Shown piece after piece: positions 4,861 through 56,180 of a DNA stretch of 64,000 bases. The notes beneath the pieces were generated by a model that was not told where the DNA came from, did not search any database, and saw only the letters and a list, made by a program, of their open reading frames with translations. Source of the stretch: a phage. Both the position numbers and the translations under genes were made by a program. Position 1 is the stretch's first letter, and each line of letters begins with the position of its first letter. The DNA lies in assembly GCA_033759635.1 (NCBI GenBank), contig GCA_033759635.1_4528.1; one strand, written 5' to 3'.

Positions 4861-4917
4861 TTTACATCTTGGTAGGACTATGTTATAGTAGTCCTACCAA
4901 AACAAACGGAGAACAAA
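4860..4917 (+). promoter_or_regulatory. early promoter / stem-loop cassette
   Basis: GTTTAC 4860-4865; 10-bp IR ggtaggacta / tagtcctacc bracketing TGTTATAGTA. Confidence 0.55.
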
Positions 4918-9594: not shown

Positions 9595-9595
9595 A

Positions 9596-9656
9596 CGCTT
9601 TACCCAAGGACGGGTTATAATGGTTTTGAGTTCCAATTCAATCTGAGGAAATAGTT
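9596..9656 (+). promoter_or_regulatory. candidate middle (MotA-type) promoter
   Basis: MotA-box-like cGCTTTA 9596-9602, 13 nt, TATAAT 9616-9621. Confidence 0.4.
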
Positions 9657-10652
9657 ATGAGCATTACATCTGATGCGGTAAAACATGAAATTAACGGTTT
9701 ATGTGCTTCACAGATTAAAGTGTGGTTTAAAGACCATAACGATCGCAGAGCACTTAATTATGAGCAAATTGCTATCCAAGTTCATCAATTACTGACTAGT
9801 AAATTTGATTTTCATATGCCGCCTGAAATCTATACTAATCTGCCGCGAGCACTTATTAAAGCGTGTAAAGGTTATGGAAAATCAATGGCTGATGGAATCT
9901 TCAGCGCGCTGAATAAACTTAACGTTCTGTCGATGATTAACTCTAACAATATCCTGCGTAATCTAGGACGTACTGATTTGTTCGGTCGTGAACAGTGTAA
10001 AATGCCTTTGAAATGGATTGTTGCTCATCTTAACGAGAACCAAACACGTTTTATGGCCGTAACAGCACGTTTACAAATGGGCCTAGATCGTCAGATGAAC
10101 TTTAAAACTCATCCACGTTATTCAGGTTCAACAGACTTTTATAAATGCGAGCTTCAAAAGGTCGCTGGCAAAACTGTCTTAGTAGTTCGTGTAACGTTTG
10201 AAGGACGACGTCAAGGATATTTTGACCTAATCGGCTCTGGTCTTAAACATTGTGGATTTATCGACGAAGTTGATATCAAGCGAGACGGCATTGGATACCG
10301 TATTGGGTATGTTTGTACTCTTAAAGAAGAGATTTCAGGACCAGCTCCAGGACTAAAAGACGTTAGATATAAAGACGAGCTCGTTGAAGAAATAAAAGAA
10401 GTTGAATATGATATCAACCAAGAAGATGCTCTTAAAGACCTTATTGATGAACTGAACCAAGATGTTATTCCTGTTCAGAAATTTGAATCAAAACATGCTG
10501 AGCAAATCAAATACTTTGAAGCTTTGATTAACGAACTTAATGTAACTATTCAACAGACTGACGATGAAATCTCACGATTAGCAGGCTTAAATGGTAAAAA
10601 TAAAACAGAACGAGCTAATCTTATTCAAGTAGTAAAACTTCTTAAGGAATGA
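9657..10652 (+). CDS. hypothetical protein with C-terminal coiled coil (331 aa)
   Basis: ORF track; heptad-like C-terminus; SD GAGGAAA. Confidence 0.6.
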   Translation: MSITSDAVKHEINGLCASQIKVWFKDHNDRRALNYEQIAIQVHQLLTSKFDFHMPPEIYTNLPRALIKACKGYGKSMADGIFSALNKLNVLSMINSNNILRNLGRTDLFGREQCKMPLKWIVAHLNENQTRFMAVTARLQMGLDRQMNFKTHPRYSGSTDFYKCELQKVAGKTVLVVRVTFEGRRQGYFDLIGSGLKHCGFIDEVDIKRDGIGYRIGYVCTLKEEISGPAPGLKDVRYKDELVEEIKEVEYDINQEDALKDLIDELNQDVIPVQKFESKHAEQIKYFEALINELNVTIQQTDDEISRLAGLNGKNKTERANLIQVVKLLKE

Positions 10653-10707
10653 TGTACAACCAAGGATGGTTGGAGTATAATAAATTTTTCAACATGAGGA
10701 ATATAAA
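10652..10707 (+). promoter_or_regulatory. promoter cassette, family B
   Basis: ATGTACAACCAAGGATGGTTGGAGTATAAT; -10 TATAAT 10675-10680. Confidence 0.5.
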
Positions 10708-11667
10708 ATGGCTTTTATTACACGTAGAGAACTTATCAAAGAATTTACCTCGAACGCATATACTCCAGGACCTAATCCTATCCGTATGCCTGTAAAAACT
10801 CCTGAAGAGATTGAGGAAGTCTGTTCGTATTATGGGATTACTTCTCGTATGTTTACTCAATTTGAATGTGTTACTAACACGCCCGTTAAAGAGTTCATTA
10901 AAAATGGTGAGTTCAGCCGTTTACTAGCCAAACAGAAACTTCGTAATTTTTGTATTGGCGGTGAAGGACAATATTTCGCTAAGCAGTTCCGGAATAACCT
11001 TAACAATCTGATGGCCATTGCTTCTCGTATTCGTCCTCAAGCAATTAACATGAAACATTTGAAATATACTTACGATAAGTTGGAAATCATGGTTATCAGT
11101 GAGAACGAGTTCACTCTCACGTATAAACCTAAGAACGATAACGTTGCTCGTGTATTCCACCAAGCGTTAGAAGTTTTAGGTGATAATATCCACCAGATTA
11201 AAGCAATTTATTCTCGTGAGCTTAATATTATCGACCCTATCAAGAATAAGGGCCATATCGCTATCCAGGCTCGTGTATCTATTGGTAAAAAGGTTCCTGC
11301 GCCATGGTGGCACAAAGACTCTGAATACTATCAAAATCTTAAAAAGGAAAATGCAACGTTCGAAGGCAATATCACAGCAACACCAGTCGGTAATGCAGAG
11401 GTTCTAAGCGCATATTCTCCGACACAACCCGGTATGTTTAAAGGTTTGCCAAATGTGTGCAAACTGTCGGCAGTAAAACTAAATGTTTCTAATGACCTTC
11501 TTCCGGCCGAAGATTATCATTACAACCAAATCAAGGCTACTGTAGACCAACTGTCCGTTGAACTTGACAAAGCACAAGCTAAGCTTCGTGATGCTCAAAG
11601 TGTTGTAACGAATCTCCAGTTGCAGTACTCTAAACTTTTTAACGCAATGAATGCGTTAAAATCATAA
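10708..11667 (+). CDS. hypothetical protein with C-terminal coiled coil (319 aa)
   Basis: ORF track; preceded by GTaCAACCAAGGATGGTTGGAGTATAAT cassette. Confidence 0.6.
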   Translation: MAFITRRELIKEFTSNAYTPGPNPIRMPVKTPEEIEEVCSYYGITSRMFTQFECVTNTPVKEFIKNGEFSRLLAKQKLRNFCIGGEGQYFAKQFRNNLNNLMAIASRIRPQAINMKHLKYTYDKLEIMVISENEFTLTYKPKNDNVARVFHQALEVLGDNIHQIKAIYSRELNIIDPIKNKGHIAIQARVSIGKKVPAPWWHKDSEYYQNLKKENATFEGNITATPVGNAEVLSAYSPTQPGMFKGLPNVCKLSAVKLNVSNDLLPAEDYHYNQIKATVDQLSVELDKAQAKLRDAQSVVTNLQLQYSKLFNAMNALKS

Positions 11668-11671
11668 AACG

Positions 11672-11729
11672 GTTTACAACCAAGGATGGTTGGAGTATAA
11701 TGAATCTATCTTAACGAGAGGAAAATATT
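11672..11729 (+). promoter_or_regulatory. promoter cassette, family B
   Basis: GTTTACAACCAAGGATGGTTGGAGTATAAT; -10 at 11695-11700. Confidence 0.55.
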
Positions 11730-12680
11730 ATGACACGTTCACATTACATTGAATACTTTGCCGGTCTTATCGCTAACGTTCATGCCCAGCGTGCTGTTGG
11801 TGCACTAGGATTTGATGTTCCACACCGAGATGTAGTAAGTGGTATTCTTCGCGATTTTGGTACATACACAGGTCAAGAAAATCATATCTGTAAAGATACT
11901 CAGAATGCGTATTCTCATTCATTAGGGACACTGCTTCAATGGTTCAAACGTTCTCGTTTATTATCTTCTACTGTAGCTCGCGATAACATTAAAAACTTTA
12001 TGAAACCGAGCTTTATTAAATCTGTGACATCTAAAACTGATTTGGTTGAATTCACTATTATTAATGATGTTAAAAAGACTCATTTGGCTGATTGGTTATC
12101 TACCATTCCTGAAACTAAATTCGCTGATAAATTTGCTTGTGAATTCAATAACCAAGTGAATATGCTTTTTAAACATTCTCGTAAATTATTCACGGGCGGT
12201 GATGGTCGTACAAATAAAGTTCATGTTAAAGATTGGGTTACTGCAGTATTCAAACCGACCGGTAATGGTAACGCATCATTATCAATTGATATCCAGGTTC
12301 CTTATTACTACTCACGTAATCTCGGTACCATGAAAGCTGAAGAAATTAATAAGCATAACAAAACCGTTCGTTCATTGTCTTATAAACTTATTACATTGTT
12401 AGAGACTATGGATGTTGTTGAAACGTTCGACGAATCCGAAGATAACGGTTCAATGTTATACAGTTCTCGCACCCGAATTAAGCTGAAGAACCCTAACGAG
12501 TATAAACTTAAGACTATTAAAGAACCTAAAGTAGAAAAAGTTGACAACTTGAGCGAAGAACGTGAATATCTCAAATCTCGTCTGAAAGAAGTCGAAGCCC
12601 AGATTAAAGAACAGACTAAATCGTTAAAAGCTCTGAATGCGAAAGCGGACGGTTTACGAAATGCCATTGAGGTGTTATAA
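11730..12680 (+). CDS. hypothetical protein with C-terminal coiled coil (316 aa)
   Basis: ORF track; preceded by GTTTACAACCAAGGATGGTTGGAGTATAAT cassette. Confidence 0.6.
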   Translation: MTRSHYIEYFAGLIANVHAQRAVGALGFDVPHRDVVSGILRDFGTYTGQENHICKDTQNAYSHSLGTLLQWFKRSRLLSSTVARDNIKNFMKPSFIKSVTSKTDLVEFTIINDVKKTHLADWLSTIPETKFADKFACEFNNQVNMLFKHSRKLFTGGDGRTNKVHVKDWVTAVFKPTGNGNASLSIDIQVPYYYSRNLGTMKAEEINKHNKTVRSLSYKLITLLETMDVVETFDESEDNGSMLYSSRTRIKLKNPNEYKLKTIKEPKVEKVDNLSEEREYLKSRLKEVEAQIKEQTKSLKALNAKADGLRNAIEVL

Positions 12681-12985
12681 TGAAACTACGTCTTTTAGAG
12701 GATATTGATATGAGCACTAATCATGGCTTGGTTAAGTTTATTGACGATAGTTCAAAGATTGAATTTGTTCAGCGAGATAAAATCCACGGTGAAGAAGAGT
12801 TCGTTCCTCCAGCATGGAACGAAATAATGAAAATGGTTGAACGACGTGAAAATGCTGCCAAATCAGCAGCAAAACATCCATGCCCGAAATGTGGAACTAT
12901 CCAAGTCCAACTGGTTAACTGGACCACTGATAACTTGAAATTGAAATGCCGTAAATGCTTCCACAAATTTGAGAGAATATTATAA
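12680..12985 (+). CDS. zinc-ribbon protein (101 aa)
   Basis: C-terminal CPKCG..x17..CRKC four-Cys ribbon; TAATG overlap. Confidence 0.5.
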   Translation: MKLRLLEDIDMSTNHGLVKFIDDSSKIEFVQRDKIHGEEEFVPPAWNEIMKMVERRENAAKSAAKHPCPKCGTIQVQLVNWTTDNLKLKCRKCFHKFERIL

Positions 12986-13398
12986 TGAGATATAGCCTTC
13001 GTTGTTTTATCGCAGCTTTAGTTTTTGCCATTATTCCATTCATTTGGAACAGTCAGAATACTTACATGGAAACTAAAGTAATTCCTGTGGAGGTAGTGGA
13101 ATTAATCTCAGGCCAATCTACAGGAAAATATTCTAAATTAGAATTTATTGCAGTCTATAAAGATGAGCAAGGACGAGTTTTTGACAGGCGTGTATCACCG
13201 TCGTTTTATACGCTTCTGAATAAAGGTGATACGATAGCTATAGAAATTCGTGAGATGGATATCAAACAAACTACTAAAGATAACTTGATTTGGTTCTTTG
13301 GTACAGTGTTGTTGGTTTCTATCTGTATCACAGGTTTTATTACATGTATTGTATTTGGCATTGCATATTTAATCGATGAAAGGAAAAATAATGTTTAA
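12985..13398 (+). CDS. hypothetical membrane protein (137 aa)
   Basis: Hydrophobic N- and C-terminal helices. Confidence 0.55.
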   Translation: MRYSLRCFIAALVFAIIPFIWNSQNTYMETKVIPVEVVELISGQSTGKYSKLEFIAVYKDEQGRVFDRRVSPSFYTLLNKGDTIAIEIREMDIKQTTKDNLIWFFGTVLLVSICITGFITCIVFGIAYLIDERKNNV

Positions 13399-26457: not shown

Positions 26458-27347
26458 ATGAATTTAATATATCTTATAACCTTTTATAATCGTGAGATTA
26501 AAAATGAATACCCTTGTTATTATATAGGTTCTAAAGTTTCGTGTCATTTTAATGGAAAGGATATTATTGAAGATTCTACCGGTAAAATATATACCGGTAG
26601 TGTTAATTCCTCGTATTCTCCTTTATATAACAGATTAATAGACCAAGGCGAATATTCTGTAAAATTTTAGGCGAAACCACATTAGACCCTAGAAGAATAG
26701 AAAGACTATTCCAACTCAATGTTAAAGCCGTTTCAAATGAAAAATATTTTAATAAGGCTTATGCTAACGAGAAGTCTAGAATATCAGCTAAAGGATATGC
26801 ACCGTATAAAAATTTAAAAACAGGCAAAATAGTAAAACTTTCTAAAAACGAAATAAACGAAGATTACGTCGGTGTTAGAAAAAATTGCAAATTGTCGGAG
26901 AATCATTTAAACGCAATTAGAGAATTTCAAAAAACATATTGGACCAAAGAACGAAGAGAGAAAGTTTCTATTCGTTCTAAAAAAATGTTTAGCGATAGAG
27001 ATTTTGCTTTAAAATTTAAAGATATAATGAATTCTCCTAATGTTAAAGATAAAATAAAAATATCTAAAACATTGTATTGGTCTAAACCTGAAAATAGAGC
27101 AAAGGCCTCTATCGCAGCTTCGAAAAGAAATGCAACCAAAGAATTTAAGGATAAATTCAGAAAATCTAAAGCTAGAGGTACATGGATATTTCATGAACAA
27201 AAATTAAAGGAATTGTGGATTGCTTTAGGAAAACCAAGTTATATTACATTTAGAAAACATGCAATTCAGCATGGTTTTAATGATGAATCATACCAAGGTG
27301 CTATCCGGTCTTGGACAAATTATTATGCTAATAGGAAACCTAAATGA
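26458..27347 (+). pseudogene. GIY-YIG homing endonuclease-like gene (seg-like), reading frame disrupted
   Basis: N-terminal fragment (26458..26670) has IYLITF..YYIGS..YTGS motifs; a different frame is open from 26631 to 27347 and encodes a basic Lys-rich C-terminal region; the frames overlap without a single continuous ORF. Confidence 0.45.
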
Positions 27348-32797: not shown

Positions 32798-32837
32798 TAT
32801 AATGCCAAGGACGGCCAACTAATTAAATGAGAGAAAT

Positions 32838-33473
32838 ATGAAAACTACTCCTATTACTATCGCTATTGACGCAATCATAAAACAAGCTTCTTCTTTGGCC
32901 GCTATGGCCAAAGTAATTAGTCAAAACCCTGCTCGTTATAATGCTATTCTAGAAACTCTTCGACGCCCAGGACTGAGTAATTATGAAAGTCGTGTAATTA
33001 TTACAGGTGTCGGTAAGAATGCTAATATCGCAACTAAAGCTTCCGAGACTTTTGCTTCATTGGGTATTCCTAGCATGTATTTGAACACCGGGCATTATTC
33101 TCATGGTGACGCAGGATTTATTGCACCTAATGATGTATTAGTTCACATCAGTCGTTCTGGTAAGACTGAAGAAATGATAGGTGTTGCTAAACATCTTCGT
33201 ATGATTCGTCCTCAGGTTAAACAGATTCTGTTACATTGTAACCCTGACATTCCACAAGAATACGAAGCTCTTTTTGATTATACGTTCTGTACCGGTATCG
33301 CGGTAGAAGTTGACGAGAACTCTTTAGCTCCGACAATGTCCACTACATTGTTGTTAGCGCTTATCGATACGTTCGCTATCAACCTTTCGTCTGAACGTGG
33401 ATTTACCTCTAATGATTTCCTTAAGTTCCATCCAGGCGGTGCACTAGGTGCCATGTTACGAGGCGAGCAATGA
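32838..33473 (+). CDS. SIS-domain sugar-phosphate isomerase, arabinose-5-phosphate isomerase-like (no CBS domains)
   Basis: 211 aa; VIITGVGKNANIA...FASLGIPSMYLNTGHYSHGDAGFIAPNDVLVHISRSGKTEE...SLAPTMSTT...HPGGALG closely parallels the KdsD/KpsF SIS domain. Confidence 0.7.
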   Translation: MKTTPITIAIDAIIKQASSLAAMAKVISQNPARYNAILETLRRPGLSNYESRVIITGVGKNANIATKASETFASLGIPSMYLNTGHYSHGDAGFIAPNDVLVHISRSGKTEEMIGVAKHLRMIRPQVKQILLHCNPDIPQEYEALFDYTFCTGIAVEVDENSLAPTMSTTLLLALIDTFAINLSSERGFTSNDFLKFHPGGALGAMLRGEQ

Positions 33474-33613
33474 AAGCAATAACAATAGGACTTTTACTAT
33501 TGATGCTTGTCATGACTATCTACTGGAGCTTAACGGCTCCAGTAATGATTCCGACTCTTATAATCGGATGGATTATGATTGGACTACAAGCAAAGTATGA
33601 ATGCTTTAACTAG
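33470..33613 (+). CDS. small membrane protein (47 aa, two hydrophobic helices)
   Basis: Not in track; ATGA overlap with upstream gene; read codon by codon to TAG 33611-33613. Confidence 0.35.
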   Translation: MKAITIGLLLLMLVMTIYWSLTAPVMIPTLIIGWIMIGLQAKYECFN

Positions 33614-33654
33614 AATAGTGTACAATACTCCTACTTACCAATGAGGACCACAAC

Positions 33655-35343
33655 ATGAAAAAAGCTGTTATTCTTGGTGCTGGATTAGCAACTCGTTTAT
33701 ATCCAATTACTCACCATATTCCTAAGGTGCTTGTTAACTATAAACAAGACACTATTCTGAGCAATTTGTATACAATTTATTCTGACCTTGGCGCAGATGA
33801 AATTATTGTAGTAGTTCATTCAAAATTTGCTGAAACTGTTCGAGCTTATTGTGAGCAAGAAGGGTTCAATGTGACTATTCGTACAGTTGATGAAGCGTAT
33901 GGTTCTGCTTATGCTCTTGCTAAATTACACAAAGATTTAGACGGCCATAACGTAATTGTTAACTGGTGTGATATTATTCCTGATTTTGGTTCATGGTCTT
34001 GGAATGTTAACGCAATCTATGTTAAGGGTGATGAATGTCGATATAATTTCGATGGTGAAAATATCACTAACGTAGGTTCAACTGGTGGTAATGTTGTAGG
34101 AATTTATCAGTTCAAAGACTGGGAATTCTATATGGGTTCTACTGATGAGGAAATTCATGAATACTGCAAAGGACGTGATTTCGTAGAATTCCTTTACAGC
34201 GGCGCATTCAATAAATCAGAGCTTATGAATATCATCGACCTTGGTGATATGCCTAAACTTGAAAAAGCTCATGAAGTTCGTGAACTTAATCGTAGTTTTA
34301 ATGCAGTTGAAATTGGTGAAGAAACGGTAACAAAGATTGCTTTAACAGAACAGGGCGTTGCACTTCAAAAAGATGAAGTCAATTGGTATAAGAAAGTTAA
34401 ATCAGATTCAGTTCCACGGATTGTAAGTTATCATCCTGGCGGCCACTTTATTATGGAACGCATTAAAGGTAAGCCGGCATTTGAATATATTAAATCCAAA
34501 TCAAGTCTTGCTCGTCCACAAATTGTTGATGCAATTTTAGATGCACTGAAATTCAGCACAGACATGTATTTTGTAAGTCCTGAAACTGTTCGTCGTGATT
34601 TCACTAAAGAATTCTATACGAAAGTTATTGATCGTTGTGAAAGTATTCAACCATTGATTGATTCATTTGGTAAAATCACACATGTGAACTACACTAAGAT
34701 TGGACGTCTGAAGCCAATGCTGAAGCAAGCTTTAGAACATCTTATTCGTTATCATACCCGTTCTCAGGGACAGTACTCTGTTATTCATGGTGACCCGAAC
34801 TTCAGTAATACTATGATTACTGATAACGGCGAAGTCAAGTTTATCGACCCTCGTGGATATTTTGGCGAAACCAAGATTTACGGGCCAAAATTGTACGATG
34901 AAGCTAAAGTGCTTTATGCTGTTTCAGGTTATGATGAATTCAATGCTAATCCGACCTGGGGACAGTTTACTATTGATGAAACAACTTGTAATGTGACTAT
35001 TAACATCAATCCATTAATTTACAAATATGGAAAGATGAGTTCGTTTAACGAGTATCATCATTTGGCGGTGGCAATTATCTGGATTGCATTAGGTGGTTAT
35101 TTCAAGAATAATCCACTTAAAGCGGTAGCCGCATATTATAAAGGTATGGAACTTCTGACTAAGCAATTACGCAACATGGGCCGTGTACTTCAAGACGGCT
35201 CTATTAGTTATGACGTAGCAGGACCTGTAACGGCTACTCTGATTACAAAAAATCCTGGTAAATGGGTACTAACTGATAAAGAAACTGGTGTTTCCTATCG
35301 TCCAATCGGTGGCGATATCACTCATCAATGGGAACGAATCTAA
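33655..35343 (+). CDS. bifunctional sugar-1-phosphate nucleotidyltransferase / APH-fold anomeric sugar kinase
   Basis: 562 aa; N-terminal ILGAGLATRLYPIT..PKVL NTP-transferase motif; C-terminal Brenner motif VIHGDPNFSNTMI and IDPRGYFG kinase motif. Confidence 0.7.
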   Translation: MKKAVILGAGLATRLYPITHHIPKVLVNYKQDTILSNLYTIYSDLGADEIIVVVHSKFAETVRAYCEQEGFNVTIRTVDEAYGSAYALAKLHKDLDGHNVIVNWCDIIPDFGSWSWNVNAIYVKGDECRYNFDGENITNVGSTGGNVVGIYQFKDWEFYMGSTDEEIHEYCKGRDFVEFLYSGAFNKSELMNIIDLGDMPKLEKAHEVRELNRSFNAVEIGEETVTKIALTEQGVALQKDEVNWYKKVKSDSVPRIVSYHPGGHFIMERIKGKPAFEYIKSKSSLARPQIVDAILDALKFSTDMYFVSPETVRRDFTKEFYTKVIDRCESIQPLIDSFGKITHVNYTKIGRLKPMLKQALEHLIRYHTRSQGQYSVIHGDPNFSNTMITDNGEVKFIDPRGYFGETKIYGPKLYDEAKVLYAVSGYDEFNANPTWGQFTIDETTCNVTININPLIYKYGKMSSFNEYHHLAVAIIWIALGGYFKNNPLKAVAAYYKGMELLTKQLRNMGRVLQDGSISYDVAGPVTATLITKNPGKWVLTDKETGVSYRPIGGDITHQWERI

Positions 35344-43536: not shown

Positions 43537-43905
43537 ATGAAAAAATTAATCGCTTTAGCAATGGTATTTGGATTAACCGGATGTGGTGCTCATGGCTTTA
43601 TCCCTAATAACGTTGGCCAACTGATTTACAATCCGAATGTTAAACAGTACAACCAACCTAAAGTTGAAGTGGAAGACCCGGTTACTGTAGGTAATCGAAT
43701 GATTCAAGCTGATGCTCATGCTCAACGTTATCGTGACTCTGATACTGTAGCTATGTCAAAAGAACAACGCGTTAAAGAACATTGTCTACAGGCTACTGAA
43801 ATCGCATTTATTCGCTATGTTGAAACAACTGGTAAAGAGCCTACCCAGAAACAAATCGCGAATAACTACGTCCAGTGTATTGAACGTTTAAACAAATTTA
43901 ATTAA
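43537..43905 (+). CDS. putative lipoprotein (122 aa)
   Basis: Signal peptide with lipobox LTGC (MKKLIALAMVFGLTGC). Confidence 0.6.
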   Translation: MKKLIALAMVFGLTGCGAHGFIPNNVGQLIYNPNVKQYNQPKVEVEDPVTVGNRMIQADAHAQRYRDSDTVAMSKEQRVKEHCLQATEIAFIRYVETTGKEPTQKQIANNYVQCIERLNKFN

Positions 43906-43908
43906 TTG

Positions 43909-43966
43909 GTTTACACCAAAGTTAAACCAAGATACTATAAACATAACAAATCAAGAGGAAATTAAC
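43909..43966 (+). promoter_or_regulatory. early promoter-like element
   Basis: GTTTAC 43909-43914, TACTAT 43933-43938; SD AAGAGGAAA. Confidence 0.5.
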
Positions 43967-44215
43967 ATGGAATTATTCGTGGCTAGTTCAGTAGCAGTTT
44001 TAATCGCAGGTATTGGTTCAATCATCATTTACATGTTGCCTTGGGTAATCGCACTTATTCGTGGCACAAAAAGCACAACAGCAATCTTCTTTGTATCTTT
44101 ACTCTTTAACTGGACGATGGTTGGTTGGATTGGAACTTTAATTTGGTCTATCGTTGCCGAAAAGAAATCGGCTCAGCAGCCTCAACAAGTAATTATTATT
44201 CGCGAAAAAGAATAA
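43967..44215 (+). CDS. small two-helix membrane protein (82 aa; possibly Imm-like)
   Basis: Two hydrophobic segments; adjacent to sp. Confidence 0.5.
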   Translation: MELFVASSVAVLIAGIGSIIIYMLPWVIALIRGTKSTTAIFFVSLLFNWTMVGWIGTLIWSIVAEKKSAQQPQQVIIIREKE

Positions 44216-52090: not shown

Positions 52091-53400
52091 CATTTGATGA
52101 TTTGACCGAAGGCCAGAAAAACGCCTTCAACGTTGTTATGAAAGCTATTAAAGAAAAGAAACATCACGTAACTATTAATGGGCCTGCCGGTACAGGTAAA
52201 ACAACCCTTACTAGATTCATCGTTGAAGCCCTTATTTCTTCTGGAGAATCAGGTATTATTTTAGCAGCCCCTACACACGCTGCTAAAAAGGTTCTAAGCA
52301 AACTTGCAGGTCAAGAAGCATCGACTATTCATAGCATTCTTAAAATCAACCCAACTACATACGAAGAAAACGTGTTATTTGAACAGAAAAAGGTTCCCGA
52401 CTTAGCCTTGTGTCGTGTACTGTTATTTGATGAAGCATCAATGTGTGACCGTTCTCTGTTTAAAATAATGTTAGCTAGTATCCCTAAATGGTGCACAGTA
52501 ATTGGAATTGGCGACCGATGTCAGATTAGACCTGTAGACCCAGGCGAATCAACTGCGTATCTAAGTCCTTTCTTCACTCACAAAGACTTCGTGCAATGCA
52601 ACCTTACAGAAGTTAAACGTAGCAATGCGCCAATTATTGATGTTGCGACCGATATTCGTAATGGCAAATGGATTTACGATAAAGTAGTTGATGGGCACGG
52701 TGTTCATGGATATACAGACCTTAAATCGTATATGATGAACTATTTTAACGTCGTTAAAACTCCTGAAGACCTTTTCGAAAATCGAATGATGGCATTCACA
52801 AATAAGTCGGTGGATAAGTTGAATTCAATTATTCGCCGAAAACTTCTCGAAACAGAAAAGCCATTTATTAAAGATGAAGTCATTGTTCTACAAGAGCCGT
52901 TTACCAAGACGTATAAGCTAGATGGCAAAAATATGACCGAAATGCTTTTCAATAACGGGCAATTCGTTCGTATTCGGGATGCTGTAGAAACGTCTACATT
53001 CGTTAAAGCACGTGGTGTTTCAGGCGAATATATGATACGATACTGGAATCTTACAGTAGAAACATATGGCGACGATGATGAATACGTCCGCGAGGATATA
53101 AAGGTTATTTCTTCTGAAGAAGAGCTTTATAAATTCAATTTGTTTTTGGCTAAGACTGCAGAAACATACAAATTCTGGAATAAAGGTGGTAAAGCTCCAT
53201 GGAGTGAATTCTGGGATGCTAAACGTATGTTCACTAAGGTGAAGGCACTACCAGTATCAACCTTCCATAAGGCCCAGGGTATGTCTGTTGGCACGGCCTT
53301 TGTTTATACACCGTGTATCCATTATGCCGATTCAGAATTAGCTAAACAGTTATTGTATGTCGGCACAACTCGTGGTCGTTTTGACGTCCATTTTATTTGA
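52087..53400 (+). CDS. dda: DNA helicase Dda (SF1)
   Basis: 437 aa; Walker A GPAGTGKTT; extensive match to recalled T4 Dda. Confidence 0.9.
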   Translation: MTFDDLTEGQKNAFNVVMKAIKEKKHHVTINGPAGTGKTTLTRFIVEALISSGESGIILAAPTHAAKKVLSKLAGQEASTIHSILKINPTTYEENVLFEQKKVPDLALCRVLLFDEASMCDRSLFKIMLASIPKWCTVIGIGDRCQIRPVDPGESTAYLSPFFTHKDFVQCNLTEVKRSNAPIIDVATDIRNGKWIYDKVVDGHGVHGYTDLKSYMMNYFNVVKTPEDLFENRMMAFTNKSVDKLNSIIRRKLLETEKPFIKDEVIVLQEPFTKTYKLDGKNMTEMLFNNGQFVRIRDAVETSTFVKARGVSGEYMIRYWNLTVETYGDDDEYVREDIKVISSEEELYKFNLFLAKTAETYKFWNKGGKAPWSEFWDAKRMFTKVKALPVSTFHKAQGMSVGTAFVYTPCIHYADSELAKQLLYVGTTRGRFDVHFI

Positions 53401-53409
53401 GAGAAAATT

Positions 53410-54087
53410 ATGAGCACTGATGTTATTATAGATTTTGAAACATTCGGCAATACGTCAAAAGCTGCTGTTATTGACCTTGCGGTTATTGCATATAATTCGG
53501 ACCCTGAAGTTGTTGAAACATTTGAAGAACTTGTTCAACGAGGTAAGCGAATTAAATTTAATTTAGCTTCTCAAAAAGGGAAGCGAGTTTTCGCTAAATC
53601 CACTATGAAATGGTGGAAAGAACAATCAGCAGAAGCACGTAAAAACCTGGCCCCGTCTGAAGACGATGTCACTACGCTTGAAGGCATTAAAATCTTTTTA
53701 GATTATTGTCGAGCTAATAAAGTTGACCAATGGAAATCACAGATGTGGTGCCGTGGTATGAGCTTTGACTTCCCGATCTTGGTCGATTTGATTCGTGACC
53801 TCTATCGTGATGAAGGTGTTCTTGAACCAGATATTGATACCGATAAATTAGAACCTGTTAAATTCTGGGCTCAACGTGATATTCGTACGGCAATCGAAGC
53901 TTACTCGTTGACACGAGGATTAAGTATGTGTCCATTACCGATGGGTACGCTAAAAGGATTCGTTGCCCATGATAGTATTCACGATTGTGCTAAAGATATT
54001 TTGATGTTAAAATATGCTCAGCGTTATGCGCTTGGCCTTGAAGATGTCCCTGAGAATCCTGACCCGTTAAGTGTAAAACAGCGATAA
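53410..54087 (+). CDS. dexA: exonuclease A (DEDD family)
   Basis: 225 aa; N-terminal IIDFETFG exonuclease motif; position after dda. Confidence 0.8.
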   Translation: MSTDVIIDFETFGNTSKAAVIDLAVIAYNSDPEVVETFEELVQRGKRIKFNLASQKGKRVFAKSTMKWWKEQSAEARKNLAPSEDDVTTLEGIKIFLDYCRANKVDQWKSQMWCRGMSFDFPILVDLIRDLYRDEGVLEPDIDTDKLEPVKFWAQRDIRTAIEAYSLTRGLSMCPLPMGTLKGFVAHDSIHDCAKDILMLKYAQRYALGLEDVPENPDPLSVKQR

Positions 54088-54092
54088 AAACA

Positions 54093-54152
54093 GTTTACAA
54101 CCAAGGATGGTTGGAGTATAATGAATCTATCTTAACCAAACAGGAAAACATT
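54093..54152 (+). promoter_or_regulatory. promoter cassette, family B
   Basis: GTTTACAACCAAGGATGGTTGGAGTATAAT (TATAAT 54117-54122). Confidence 0.55.
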
Positions 54153-54647
54153 ATGAATATCAATACCACGGCTACTTACATCCTGAAAGATGAAAAACAA
54201 ATCAACTGGTACGGTGCTTCAGTGCGAGCTTATGAAAAGTTTTGTGAAATTTTAGGTGCCACTCAAGGTAATAGTTTCACTATTGTTAACTTCATCAAAC
54301 AAGTTGAAGGCCCTTGGTTATTCTTAGAAATTAAAAATTCATATGGTACAATTTCTACTACCGCCATTCCAAGCACCGACTTTGAACTGTTGATTGAAGA
54401 AGTAGAACCCGTTAAAGATATCTGTATTGATATGGATATCACTTGTATGTACGGTACTCTGATTAAGCCTATTGAGCCTACTGATTTGTTGTGTAAATAT
54501 GTTTCAATTCGACGCCCATTCGCTGGTCCAGTAAATGGATGGGTAACTGACCAATGGATTGAAGACGGTGTTGAACTTCTGAACGTTGTTCATGCAGGTG
54601 ATTTTAGTGTAGTTCCACGTAGTGCTGTGGTTAATATCCTTAATTAA
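54153..54647 (+). CDS. hypothetical protein, member 1 of tandem paralogue family (164 aa)
   Basis: C-terminal GWVTDQWIEDGVELLNVVHAGDFSVVP shared with the next two genes. Confidence 0.55.
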   Translation: MNINTTATYILKDEKQINWYGASVRAYEKFCEILGATQGNSFTIVNFIKQVEGPWLFLEIKNSYGTISTTAIPSTDFELLIEEVEPVKDICIDMDITCMYGTLIKPIEPTDLLCKYVSIRRPFAGPVNGWVTDQWIEDGVELLNVVHAGDFSVVPRSAVVNILN

Positions 54648-54650
54648 TGT

Positions 54651-54709
54651 TGTACATCCAAGGACGGATGGAGTATAATGAATTCAACTTAAACAAAGAG
54701 AGAGAAATT
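54651..54709 (+). promoter_or_regulatory. promoter cassette, family B variant
   Basis: TGTACATCCAAGGACGGATGGAGTATAAT (TATAAT 54674-54679). Confidence 0.5.
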
Positions 54710-55165
54710 ATGATTACTATTGGTGAAATTAAGCGTGTATCATCTGCATCTCGTTCTAAAGCTGCAGGTCGTCTGGTTGAAGTTGTCGGACTTCGTACTA
54801 ATGGTACTGGACGTGTTAAAGAAGTTAAAGTTCGAATCATTCCTAGTTCCGGAAAAACTGAAACTCAGTACGCTTACGTAAGTCCTAAATTCTTGGAAAC
54901 TCATGTGAGCGCTCATTTTGCTTCTACTGAACCTAATGTACAGTTCAAATGGGCCTTGTGTAAAGGTGTTGAATTCCAGACTGATAAAGAATTTGACTTC
55001 ATCGATGAATACGGTTATCCAAGCAAAACTGATACTATGTGCGGCTTCATTAGTGACCAATGGGTTGAAGATGGTGAAAAGTTATACAATATCGTATTCT
55101 TAGGTGACTTCCGAGTTGTTAAAGAATCTGAAATCACTCGCTATGTGTCTCCTCGTAAAGCTTAA
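54710..55165 (+). CDS. hypothetical protein, member 2 of tandem paralogue family (151 aa)
   Basis: SASRSKAAGRLVEV and FISDQWVEDGEKLYNIVFLGDFRVV shared with member 3. Confidence 0.55.
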   Translation: MITIGEIKRVSSASRSKAAGRLVEVVGLRTNGTGRVKEVKVRIIPSSGKTETQYAYVSPKFLETHVSAHFASTEPNVQFKWALCKGVEFQTDKEFDFIDEYGYPSKTDTMCGFISDQWVEDGEKLYNIVFLGDFRVVKESEITRYVSPRKA

Positions 55166-55598: not shown

Positions 55599-55655
55599 GT
55601 TTACTTCTCCTCTGGTTTTGATATTATAACCCCATATCAACCAGAGGAGAATAAT
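55599..55655 (+). promoter_or_regulatory. early promoter / stem-loop cassette
   Basis: GTTTAC 55599-55604; perfect 13-bp IR ttctcctctggtt (55605-55617) / aaccagaggagaa (55639-55651) that includes the SD. Confidence 0.6.
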
Positions 55656-56180
55656 ATGTTAGTTTACCGCGTAGAACGTAGTTTTTGCACTCAACGTGAA
55701 TCTTTACCGGGAGTTGCTATCGAAGATGGTAAAGCCGTCAGAATTTGGGAAACCTCCTGGAATAAAGAACCTCGTTCGCCATACGGTTGGTCGGGCACCG
55801 ACAACTCTGAAGAAACATGGGAGTTCCTTGATAAGCATGGAATACTCTCAGGTAACTTCTACCATCACGGCGACAACTATAATGTCCCTAATCGTCCTAC
55901 AGTAAATGAAGACAAACTCCTTGAACAAAATATCTTAAGATACTATAGAATTGAGCACACATTTGAATTGAACGAAGATTGGGCTCAAGGGTTCTATTTT
56001 GGATTTGAAAGTGTTGACGCGGTTTATGCATGGTTTGATGACCAGGTGGATGTTGAACTCTTGAAAGCTAAAGGATACTACATCGCGGTCTATGAAGCAC
56101 CTGATTTCATCCTCGGAAGTTGTCAATTAATGTTTAGACGTTCATTGGCAGAACAAGTTGATTTTATTTTGCTAAAATGA
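55656..56180 (+). CDS. hypothetical protein (174 aa)
   Basis: Start refined to ATG 55656 after SD AGAGGAGAA. Confidence 0.55.
   Translation: MLVYRVERSFCTQRESLPGVAIEDGKAVRIWETSWNKEPRSPYGWSGTDNSEETWEFLDKHGILSGNFYHHGDNYNVPNRPTVNEDKLLEQNILRYYRIEHTFELNEDWAQGFYFGFESVDAVYAWFDDQVDVELLKAKGYYIAVYEAPDFILGSCQLMFRRSLAEQVDFILLK

Follow-up and report, generated by a model that had tools for sequence, protein, structure and literature searches.

Promoter-early stem-loops (PeSLs) were proposed, and in part demonstrated, for phages RB49 and phi1, with mini-circles and with crossovers falling between the -10 element and the Shine–Dalgarno (SD) sequence or the ATG (Arbiol 2010, PMC2839356), and were later extended to T4/PST and KVP40/nt-1 (Comeau 2014, PMC4122927). 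RB69 is mentioned in neither of these papers, and nrdC, motB and dexA are absent from the second; for RB69 itself, 57 early promoters have been predicted genome-wide, without comment on cassettes (Nolan 2006, PMC1524935). Here we describe four copies of a promoter cassette located before the genes nrdC.5, nrdC.3, motB.1 and motB in a stretch of phage DNA of 64,000 nucleotides (nt) (GenBank assembly GCA_033759635.1, contig GCA_033759635.1_4528.1; the window, below). Over this region, the DNA shares 99% identity with Escherichia phage CCU7 and Shigella phage Shf125875, and it is collinear with RB69, which places the window in Mosigvirus (RB69-like phages) of the Tevenvirinae.

We propose, with a probability of roughly 0.78, that one T4-type early-promoter cassette is present here in four copies, which act as direct repeats for homologous recombination, and that a hairpin in the promoter spacer acts in read-through RNA. 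Each cassette fills the whole 55–65-nt intergenic gap at its site in the hyperplastic regions nrdC.x and dexA-cef/motB. Host sigma-70 RNA polymerase would start approximately 7 nt past TATAAT, giving early expression of nrdC.5, nrdC.3, motB.1 and motB. Comparison with relatives shows that homologous recombination of the phage uses identities of 26–44 bp as direct repeats. A crossover between neighbouring cassettes removes or adds exactly one gene together with one cassette, leaving a promoter that is chimeric but intact; cassettes 42 kb apart swap short tracts by gene conversion and so stay alike. The hairpin, when present in read-through RNA, may serve as a 3'-end, processing or protein-binding element and would be the counterpart of the PeSL stem-loop.

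Like PeSLs, the cassettes are compact intergenic units with an AT-rich lead, a sigma-70-like early promoter, an SD, an ATG and a short stem-loop, and they are repeats in hyperplastic regions, flanked by genes that differ between close relatives. As with PeSLs, the variation (presence or absence of nrdC.5 and motB.1 and replacement of the motB N-terminal part) occurs at cassette borders in every case, and what remains after an exchange is a chimeric cassette whose crossover mostly lies between -10 and SD/ATG. The difference lies in the stem-loop, which in PeSLs is found just upstream of the -35 element and is read as a terminator, whereas here it sits inside the 17-bp spacer, has no T-run and carries a constant AGGA loop. 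Since the spacer stem-loop is the only conserved one and no terminator-like stem-loop lies upstream, we regard the cassettes as working like PeSLs, but as a variant rather than as strict members of that group. The concept is already published under that name (PMC2839356, PMC4122927); modestly new are the natural cassette-bounded polymorphisms in Mosigvirus and the AGGA-loop hairpin in early and middle promoters of four genera.

Sequence and promoter anatomy of the cassettes

The four cassettes are organized as follows (UTR, untranslated region).

10652..10707, + strand: cassette 1, nrdC.6/nrdC.5 gap; -35 element TGTACA at 10653-10658, overlapping the nrdC.6 stop codon; hairpin CAACCA-AGGA-TGGTTG at 10657-10672; GGAG at 10672-10675; -10 element TATAAT at 10676-10681; SD GAGGA; ATG at 10708
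11668..11729, + strand: cassette 2, nrdC.5/nrdC.3 gap; A-rich lead; -35 element (G)TTTACA at 11673-11678; hairpin at 11677-11692; GGAG at 11692-11695; -10 element at 11696-11701; 5'UTR GAATCTATCTTAAC...; SD GAGAGGA; ATG at 11730
54088..54152, + strand: cassette 3, dexA/motB.1 gap; -35 element TTTACA at 54094-54099; hairpin at 54098-54113; -10 element at 54117-54122; ATG at 54153
54648..54709, + strand: cassette 4, motB.1/motB gap; -35 element TGTACA at 54651-54656; hairpin CATCCA-AGGA-CGGATG at 54655-54670; -10 element at 54674-54679; ATG at 54710

The original prediction of near-identical 30-nt cassettes at 10652, 11672, 54093 and 54651 proved accurate, the fourth copy being counted here from 54650. 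The 30-mer GTTTACAACCAAGGATGGTTGGAGTATAAT occurs without mismatch at 11672-11701 and 54093-54122 and with 2 mismatches at 10652-10681 (ATGTACA...), and at 54651-54679 its place is taken by the variant TGTACATCCAAGGACGGATGGAGTATAAT; it had no match in 100 dinucleotide-preserving shuffles. Between the copies at 11672 and 54093, identity extends over 44 nt, through GAATCTATCTTAAC, and all four can be aligned over the entire gap of 55–65 nt from the upstream stop codon to the ATG. In the 13 Mosigvirus genomes tabulated, a 29-nt core is nearly invariant, with T or C at the loop-closing base and few changes in the -35 and -10 elements.

At the sequence level, the promoter parts (TTTACA or TGTACA, 17 nt, TATAAT) are present at all four sites, which match the consensus at 10–11 of 12 positions and are the top sites in both regions. 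The promoter is separated by a 5'UTR of ∼ 25–30 nt from the SD (GAGGA, GAGAGGA, ACAGGA or GAGAGAGA, 6–9 nt 5' of the ATG) and the start codon. T4 early promoters are characterized by a GTTTAC -35 element, TGn, TATAAT and an A-rich UP element at about -40 to -44 (Hinton 2010, PMC2988021). Their signature, GTTTAC (-36 to -31) with TATAAT (-12 to -7), is exact in cassettes 2 and 3 and replaced by (A/T)TGTAC at the -35 position in cassettes 1 and 4; cassettes 2 and 3 also have the short A-rich lead ATAAAAC, at the place of which cassettes 1 and 4 have coding sequence. The cassettes resemble T4 early promoters in the GTTTAC(A) -35 element, 17-bp spacer, TATAAT, position directly 5' of early-region open reading frames (ORFs) and, in cassettes 2 and 3, A-rich lead, but differ from them in the absence of TGn, in TGTACA in two copies and in the conservation of spacer and 5'UTR far past what the consensus needs.

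This last difference bears on the view that the likeness is a convergence of strong T4-type early promoters on one consensus, with no common descent and no role in recombination. Other early-type promoters on the + strand of the window do carry GTTTAC and TATAAT as well. However, the consensus leaves spacers and 5'UTRs free, yet two copies share the 44-nt identity; the spacers of the other promoters in the window are unrelated; and the chimeric cassettes at deletion junctions described below represent physical exchange, which contradicts convergence. We consider this explanation barely credible.

A mini-ORF reading of the segment, GGAG-TATA-ATG AAT CTA TCT TAA, was ruled out, as the ATG is missing from the variants with cttt after TATAAT and from cassette 1. 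In read-through RNA (window 11696-11732 and 54117-54155), the -10 segment UAUAAUG can form 7 AU-rich bp with (U/C)AUUAUG over the start codon; this pairing may be due to chance and, if real, would make translation depend on the cassette's own promoter.

The genes bordering the cassettes are listed below.

9657..10652, + strand: nrdC.6 orthologue, 331 aa
10708..11667, + strand: nrdC.5 orthologue, 319 aa, DUF7235; the module between cassettes 1 and 2
11730..12680, + strand: nrdC.3 orthologue, 316 aa; nrdC.4 is a distant paralogue
53410..54087, + strand: dexA, exonuclease A, 225 aa
54153..54647, + strand: motB.1 homologue, 164 aa, with a C-terminal MotB domain; the module between cassettes 3 and 4
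54710..55165, + strand: motB homologue, 151 aa, PF17613
55175..55594, + strand: second MotB-like paralogue, 139 aa, with no cassette of its own and a 9-nt gap in front
55653-56180: motB.2, 3' of the MotB paralogues

Each cassette had been said to precede a gene of a tandem family, either a '320-aa trio' or the paralogues after dexA. Annotation and BLASTP identify the trio as nrdC.6, nrdC.5 and nrdC.3. The term is right for the motB group, in which motB.1, motB and the second MotB-like protein all match Pfam PF17613 (E=5e-30 for the pair F versus G within this group). It is unproven for the trio, among which pairwise BLASTP found zero similarity and small profile comparisons (hhalign) gave a weak signal for nrdC.3/4 versus nrdC.5 (P=5e-4) and none for nrdC.6. 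A single protein family comprising the trio therefore goes unsupported by BLASTP and is weakly supported by hhalign.

These paralogies make it worth asking if the cassettes are simply by-products of tandem gene duplication, with the promoter carried along and no further part in rearrangements, since motB.1, motB and the gene that follows them are paralogues of the MotB family and nrdC.3 and nrdC.4 are distant paralogues. Against this, one cassette serves unrelated loci 42 kb apart, nrdC.5 has no clear similarity to nrdC.3, the third MotB paralogue has no cassette, and cassette-bounded insertions or deletions and conversion tracts are observed. Moreover, the proteins share at most 43% identity but the cassettes are nearly identical, so that the latter must have been homogenized after duplication. 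We therefore judge duplication to be an unlikely explanation by itself.

Gene loss, gain and conversion at cassette borders

Comparison with relatives showed homology-driven exchange between cassette copies. As locus searches of IMG/VR returned 4 loci for NrdC.3 and 8 loci for NrdC.8, INPHARED records were used instead. A degenerate scan of viral contigs with TTTAN{1,3}CCAAGGATGG, a pattern with too few specified bases (14), gave at least 120 unrelated loci; these were discarded and excluded from what follows.

Phages G2285 and AV109 lack nrdC.5 and one cassette, exactly the 1020 bp that separate cassettes 1 and 2 in the window, and their nrdC junction is chimeric, with a TGTACA-type upstream part joined to an nrdC.3-type 5'UTR. 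In the other region, motB.1 and one cassette are missing from JK45, ST2, AV116, S143_2, G2285 and others; in JK45, for instance, only one cassette separates dexA from motB. Among the best 40 matches in a search with the JK45 junction, 19 contained it in a single piece and 21 carried motB.1. The interval between dexA and cef is highly variable in content among 52 T4-like loci.

All five motB.1-less junctions that were read are chimeric cassettes, with three different crossover points: between the -35 element and the hairpin in G2285; immediately past TATAATGAAT in AV116, S143_2 and ST2; and past GAATCTAT in JK45. Taking both regions together (JK45, ST2, AV116, S143_2, G2285 and AV109), most crossovers at chimeric junctions fall between TATAAT and the SD and one falls in the -35 region. 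This spread argues against a site-specific enzyme. A dedicated system (an integrase-like or homing enzyme) moving genes via the cassette, in place of general homologous recombination, deserves mention because site-specific recombination was left open by the authors of the PeSL work (PMC4122927) and T4-type genomes encode many homing endonucleases. Crossovers at three or more positions over ∼ 45 nt of cassette are, however, the signature of homology-driven exchange, and no recombinase gene is adjacent to the cassettes, which makes such a system highly improbable.

Short tracts have also moved between the two regions. In most genomes, the 4 nt that follow TATAAT read gaat in the nrdC.3 copy and cttt in the motB.1 copy. 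In RB69, both copies have cttt, and in the window both have gaat; of ESh15, the motB.1 copy was read and has gaat. Because such a 4-base block cannot arise twice by point mutation, the tract must have been copied between loci 42 kb apart. A larger replacement is seen in comparison with phiE142, to which the window is 97–100% identical up to cassette 4; identity is 47–70% from the motB start codon (54710) to ∼ 54920 and then recovers. The N-terminal half of motB has thus been replaced in phiE142, with the border exactly at the start codon after the cassette. The alternative motB start is common to CCU7 and ESh15.

Exchange of neighbours is seen between genera as well. The cassette that follows nrdC.5 stands before nrdC.3 in Mosigvirus and before nrdC.4 in JS10 and VR7, and T4 has both nrdC.3 and nrdC.4, each with a related cassette. 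The core of the JS10 nrdC.4 cassette (F-type, TTTACATCCAAGGATGGATGGAGTATAAT) is identical to that of Mosigvirus motB, and a cassette of the T4 nrdC.4 type was found in the dexA-cef region of another T4-like lineage. The motB.2 gene lies directly after dexA in T4 and after the MotB paralogues in Mosigvirus.

A comparison of gene content at the cassette boundaries of relatives, the check suggested with the original prediction, therefore found variation precisely there. The proposed cassette-mediated gene shuffling is borne out by the presence or absence of nrdC.5 and motB.1, each with one cassette, and by the chimeric junctions; what is directly seen is loss or gain between direct repeats, together with gene conversion. 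These data come from many independent genomes and include deletions of exactly one repeat unit, crossovers at several points and ectopic conversion across 42 kb; they are clean evidence from natural isolates for promoter-cassette-mediated modular gene loss or gain in a genus outside those of the PeSL papers. The accessory genes nrdC.5 and motB.1 could be removed or restored with no break in the expression of their neighbours, which bears on the annotation and engineering of therapeutic T4-like phages.

Two of the phages compared, JK45 (NC_054940) and ST2 (OM982647), are filed as Tequatrovirus and Guernseyvirinae/Kagunavirus, respectively. Both have nrdC and dexA-motB regions of the Mosigvirus type, with which their database taxonomy looks to be at odds.

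The spacer hairpin with the AGGA loop

The small AACCA/TGGTT hairpin around AGGA that had been noticed in the spacer is real and slightly longer than then described, with 6 bp (CAACCA-AGGA-TGGTTG). In cassette 4, the form CATCCA-AGGA-(T/C)GGATG has a compensatory swap of A:T to T:A. The sequence CCAAGGAYGG occurs 6 times in the window (0.05 expected), always on the + strand and always in intergenic regions: in the four cassettes, in a middle-type junction at 9604 and at 32805, after the stop codon of gene 43. The two additional sites are as follows.

9595..9656, + strand: nrdC.8/nrdC.6 junction; MotA-box-like CGCTTTA, 13 nt, TATAAT; hairpin ACCC(A)-AGGA-(C)GGGT in the spacer
32798..32837, + strand: sixth hairpin, GCC-AAGGAC-GGC, directly 3' of the gene 43 stop codon and 5' of a KpsF/GutQ-like gene; the hairpin (32805) is downstream of a TATAAT

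The first trio gene, nrdC.6, is fronted not by an early cassette but by this middle-promoter-like junction, which is the counterpart of the T4 middle promoter PnrdC.7, with a mapped start site at 53325 (PMC2988021 Table 1); among the T4 counterparts, experimental mapping was confirmed for PnrdC.7 only. The T4 nrdC.8/nrdC.7 junction reads CGCTTTA-TACCAAGGATGG-TATAAT, with the TATAAT 7 nt upstream of 53325; this mapped start is the one experimental anchor for the promoter use predicted for the cassettes. PnrdC.7 has the CCA-AGGA-TGG hairpin of the cassettes, here as TATACCA-AGGA-TGGTATA, lying between its upstream element and TATAAT. It does not belong to the four cassettes, from which it differs in having a MotA box (CGCTTTA, 12 nt) in place of the -35 element with its 17 nt, which indicates dependence on MotA/AsiA.

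Hairpins of this type are common to early and middle promoters of Tequatrovirus, Mosigvirus, Dhakavirus and Gaprivervirus. T4 has CCACA-AGGA-TGTGG before nrdC.4 and AGCCA-AGGA-TGGCT before nrdC.3, JS10 has CATCCA/TGGATG, VR7 has CTTCCA/TGGAGG with a U.G pair, and further stems are found in other lineages. Over 12 distinct versions, 87.5% of the cells pair, as against 62.9% with partners shuffled and 19–41% in slid-register controls, and the covariation score is 0.578 versus 0.127 in the control (0 of 500 shuffles reached 0.578), a statistic inflated by the fact that the instances were picked by motif.

Alternatively, the inverted repeat could be a DNA operator for a dimeric phage or host regulator of nrdC.5, nrdC.3, motB.1 and motB, and selection for binding could keep the cassettes alike; the spacer is indeed conserved across genera, and two of the genes that follow the cassettes are members of the DNA-binding MotB family. 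The details, however, speak for a single-stranded element. The loop is constant at AGGA, and the stems of 5–7 bp covary, whereas an operator should have conserved half-sites, and the AGGA centre is asymmetric. All copies are on the sense strand, and G.U pairs occur in the sense orientation only, where the opposite strand would have C.A mismatches. The position relative to the -35 and -10 elements varies: in the T4 nrdC.4 promoter the element is displaced by 4 nt, in PnrdC.7 it overlaps the -10 element, and at 32805 it follows the -10 element. All this makes a double-stranded operator very unlikely. The hairpin appears to be a single-stranded element, likeliest an RNA element in read-through transcripts: it always starts 4–11 nt after the upstream stop codon and would thus be carried only by read-through RNA from upstream promoters.

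As a candidate RNA motif, the sense-strand AGGA hairpin is small, open to testing and absent from Rfam. At the gathering score, Rfam had zero family matches over the whole window, a covariance model of the hairpin detected no copies in the window beyond the six from which it was built, and literature searches for the motif string and for maps of T4 transcription starts gave nothing relevant.

Besides the inflated covariation statistic, several observations weigh against the cassettes being promoter-bearing direct repeats with a hairpin that acts in RNA. The TGn extended -10 element is absent (GAG precedes TATAAT), and the -35 element of two of the four cassettes is the weaker TGTACA. Early use of these promoters is predicted from their sequence. 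The folding energy of the cassette RNAs was no better than that of shuffles (z from -0.6 to -2.0), so that thermodynamic stability alone is no argument for structure. A role of the hairpin as an intrinsic terminator was ruled out, as it has no T-run and a terminator scan of the + strand was empty at the cassettes. The motB.1 and nrdC.5 polymorphisms could be losses or gains, in either direction, and no import of foreign genes was seen at the cassettes, only insertions or deletions between adjacent direct repeats and short conversion tracts.

Two kinds of GGA-reading factors could be considered for the hairpin loop. The first is RegB with S1, which cuts GGAG/U in early intergenic regions and prefers sites in which the GGA is unpaired, the fourth base is constrained and the 3' side is A-rich, GGAGRAYARAA (PMC3014915). 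In the cassettes, the loop has GGAU with the GGA unpaired, and GGAGUAUAAU comes directly after the stem; the GGAG adjoining the hairpin (GGAGUAUAAUG/A) fits the RegB context at ∼ 4 of 7 downstream positions and is a putative site. The second is CsrA/RsmA, whose high-affinity ligands selected by SELEX, RUACARGGAUGU, have GGA in a hairpin loop and a 100% conserved ACA (PMC4347634). The cassettes resemble these ligands in the short hairpin with an (A)GGA loop and in AAGGAUG, which is similar to the ligand core, and the T4 nrdC.4 version contains ACAAGGAUGU exactly (ACA-AGGAUGU), but in the window copies CCA stands in place of the ACA that is invariant in the SELEX ligands, and binding is putative. 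A literature search for CsrA with T4-type phages found no link.

Rather speculatively, early and middle read-through transcripts of the Tevenvirinae might carry the AGGA hairpin as a dedicated element for RNA recognition, a decoy or binding site for a GGA-reading factor (host CsrA, or RegB with ribosomal protein S1). In that case, the likeness of the spacers across genera would be maintained by selection on the RNA element as well as by recombination. Its placement right after stop codons would then force the overlap with promoter spacers, and ∼ 60 nt would couple a promoter, RNA processing or regulator titration, and a recombination patch.

Two other hairpins in the window have an AAGGA(Y) loop and long stems, AGTTTTCT-AAGGAC-GGAAAATT at 1423-1444 and GAATTT-AAGGAT-AAATTC at 27141-27158. 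They have no CCA/TGG core, score poorly with the hairpin model and may be due to chance.

Neighbouring genes and other promoter designs

In RB69-like phages, nrdC.7 (window 12985-13398; 43786-44199 in the RB69 locus L008) lies between nrdC.2 and nrdC, and in T4 it lies between nrdC.8 and nrdC.6; the Mosigvirus arrangement also has no nrdC.4 and nrdC.1. These differences add to the module moves within this hyperplastic region.

The T4 motB.1 gene (119 aa; locus L006, 1292-1651) looks like a frameshifted form of the full-length 164-aa gene of the window: the conserved C-terminal WVTDQWIEDGVELLNVVHAG...VVPRSAVV runs on in another frame. In RB69 (RB69p012/p013; locus L008, 2877-3373), motB.1 is annotated as two ORFs. 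The T4 and RB69 forms could be pseudogenes or the result of a sequencing or annotation frameshift.

The segment 3' of gene 43 (window 32838-35343) encodes a KpsF/GutQ-like sugar isomerase and a 562-aa nucleotidyltransferase/kinase-like ORF, matching the region of the RB69 sugar-related genes RB69p050-p055.

A different promoter cassette family, probably the first family implied by the original prediction, is found on the + strand at 782, 4412, 42909 and 55600, with the sequence GTTTACTTCTCCTC(T/A)(A/G)GTTGTGTTA(C/T)TAT...CAAC(T/C)AGAGGAGAA. Its spacer contains the anti-SD-like TTCTCCTC, which is complementary to the downstream SD region GAGGAGAA; by virtue of this complementarity, read-through RNA could mask the SD, which RNA started at the family's own promoter could not do. 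Yet another design is represented by the early-type promoters at 4861, 9012, 44221 and 56181, in which the -10 element is bracketed by an inverted repeat, as in TAGGACTAtgtTATAGTAGTCCTA and AGGTCTATggttatgtTATTATAGACCT. This -10-bracketing design recurs in the T4 motB promoter (GGGACCagagTATAATGGTCCC).

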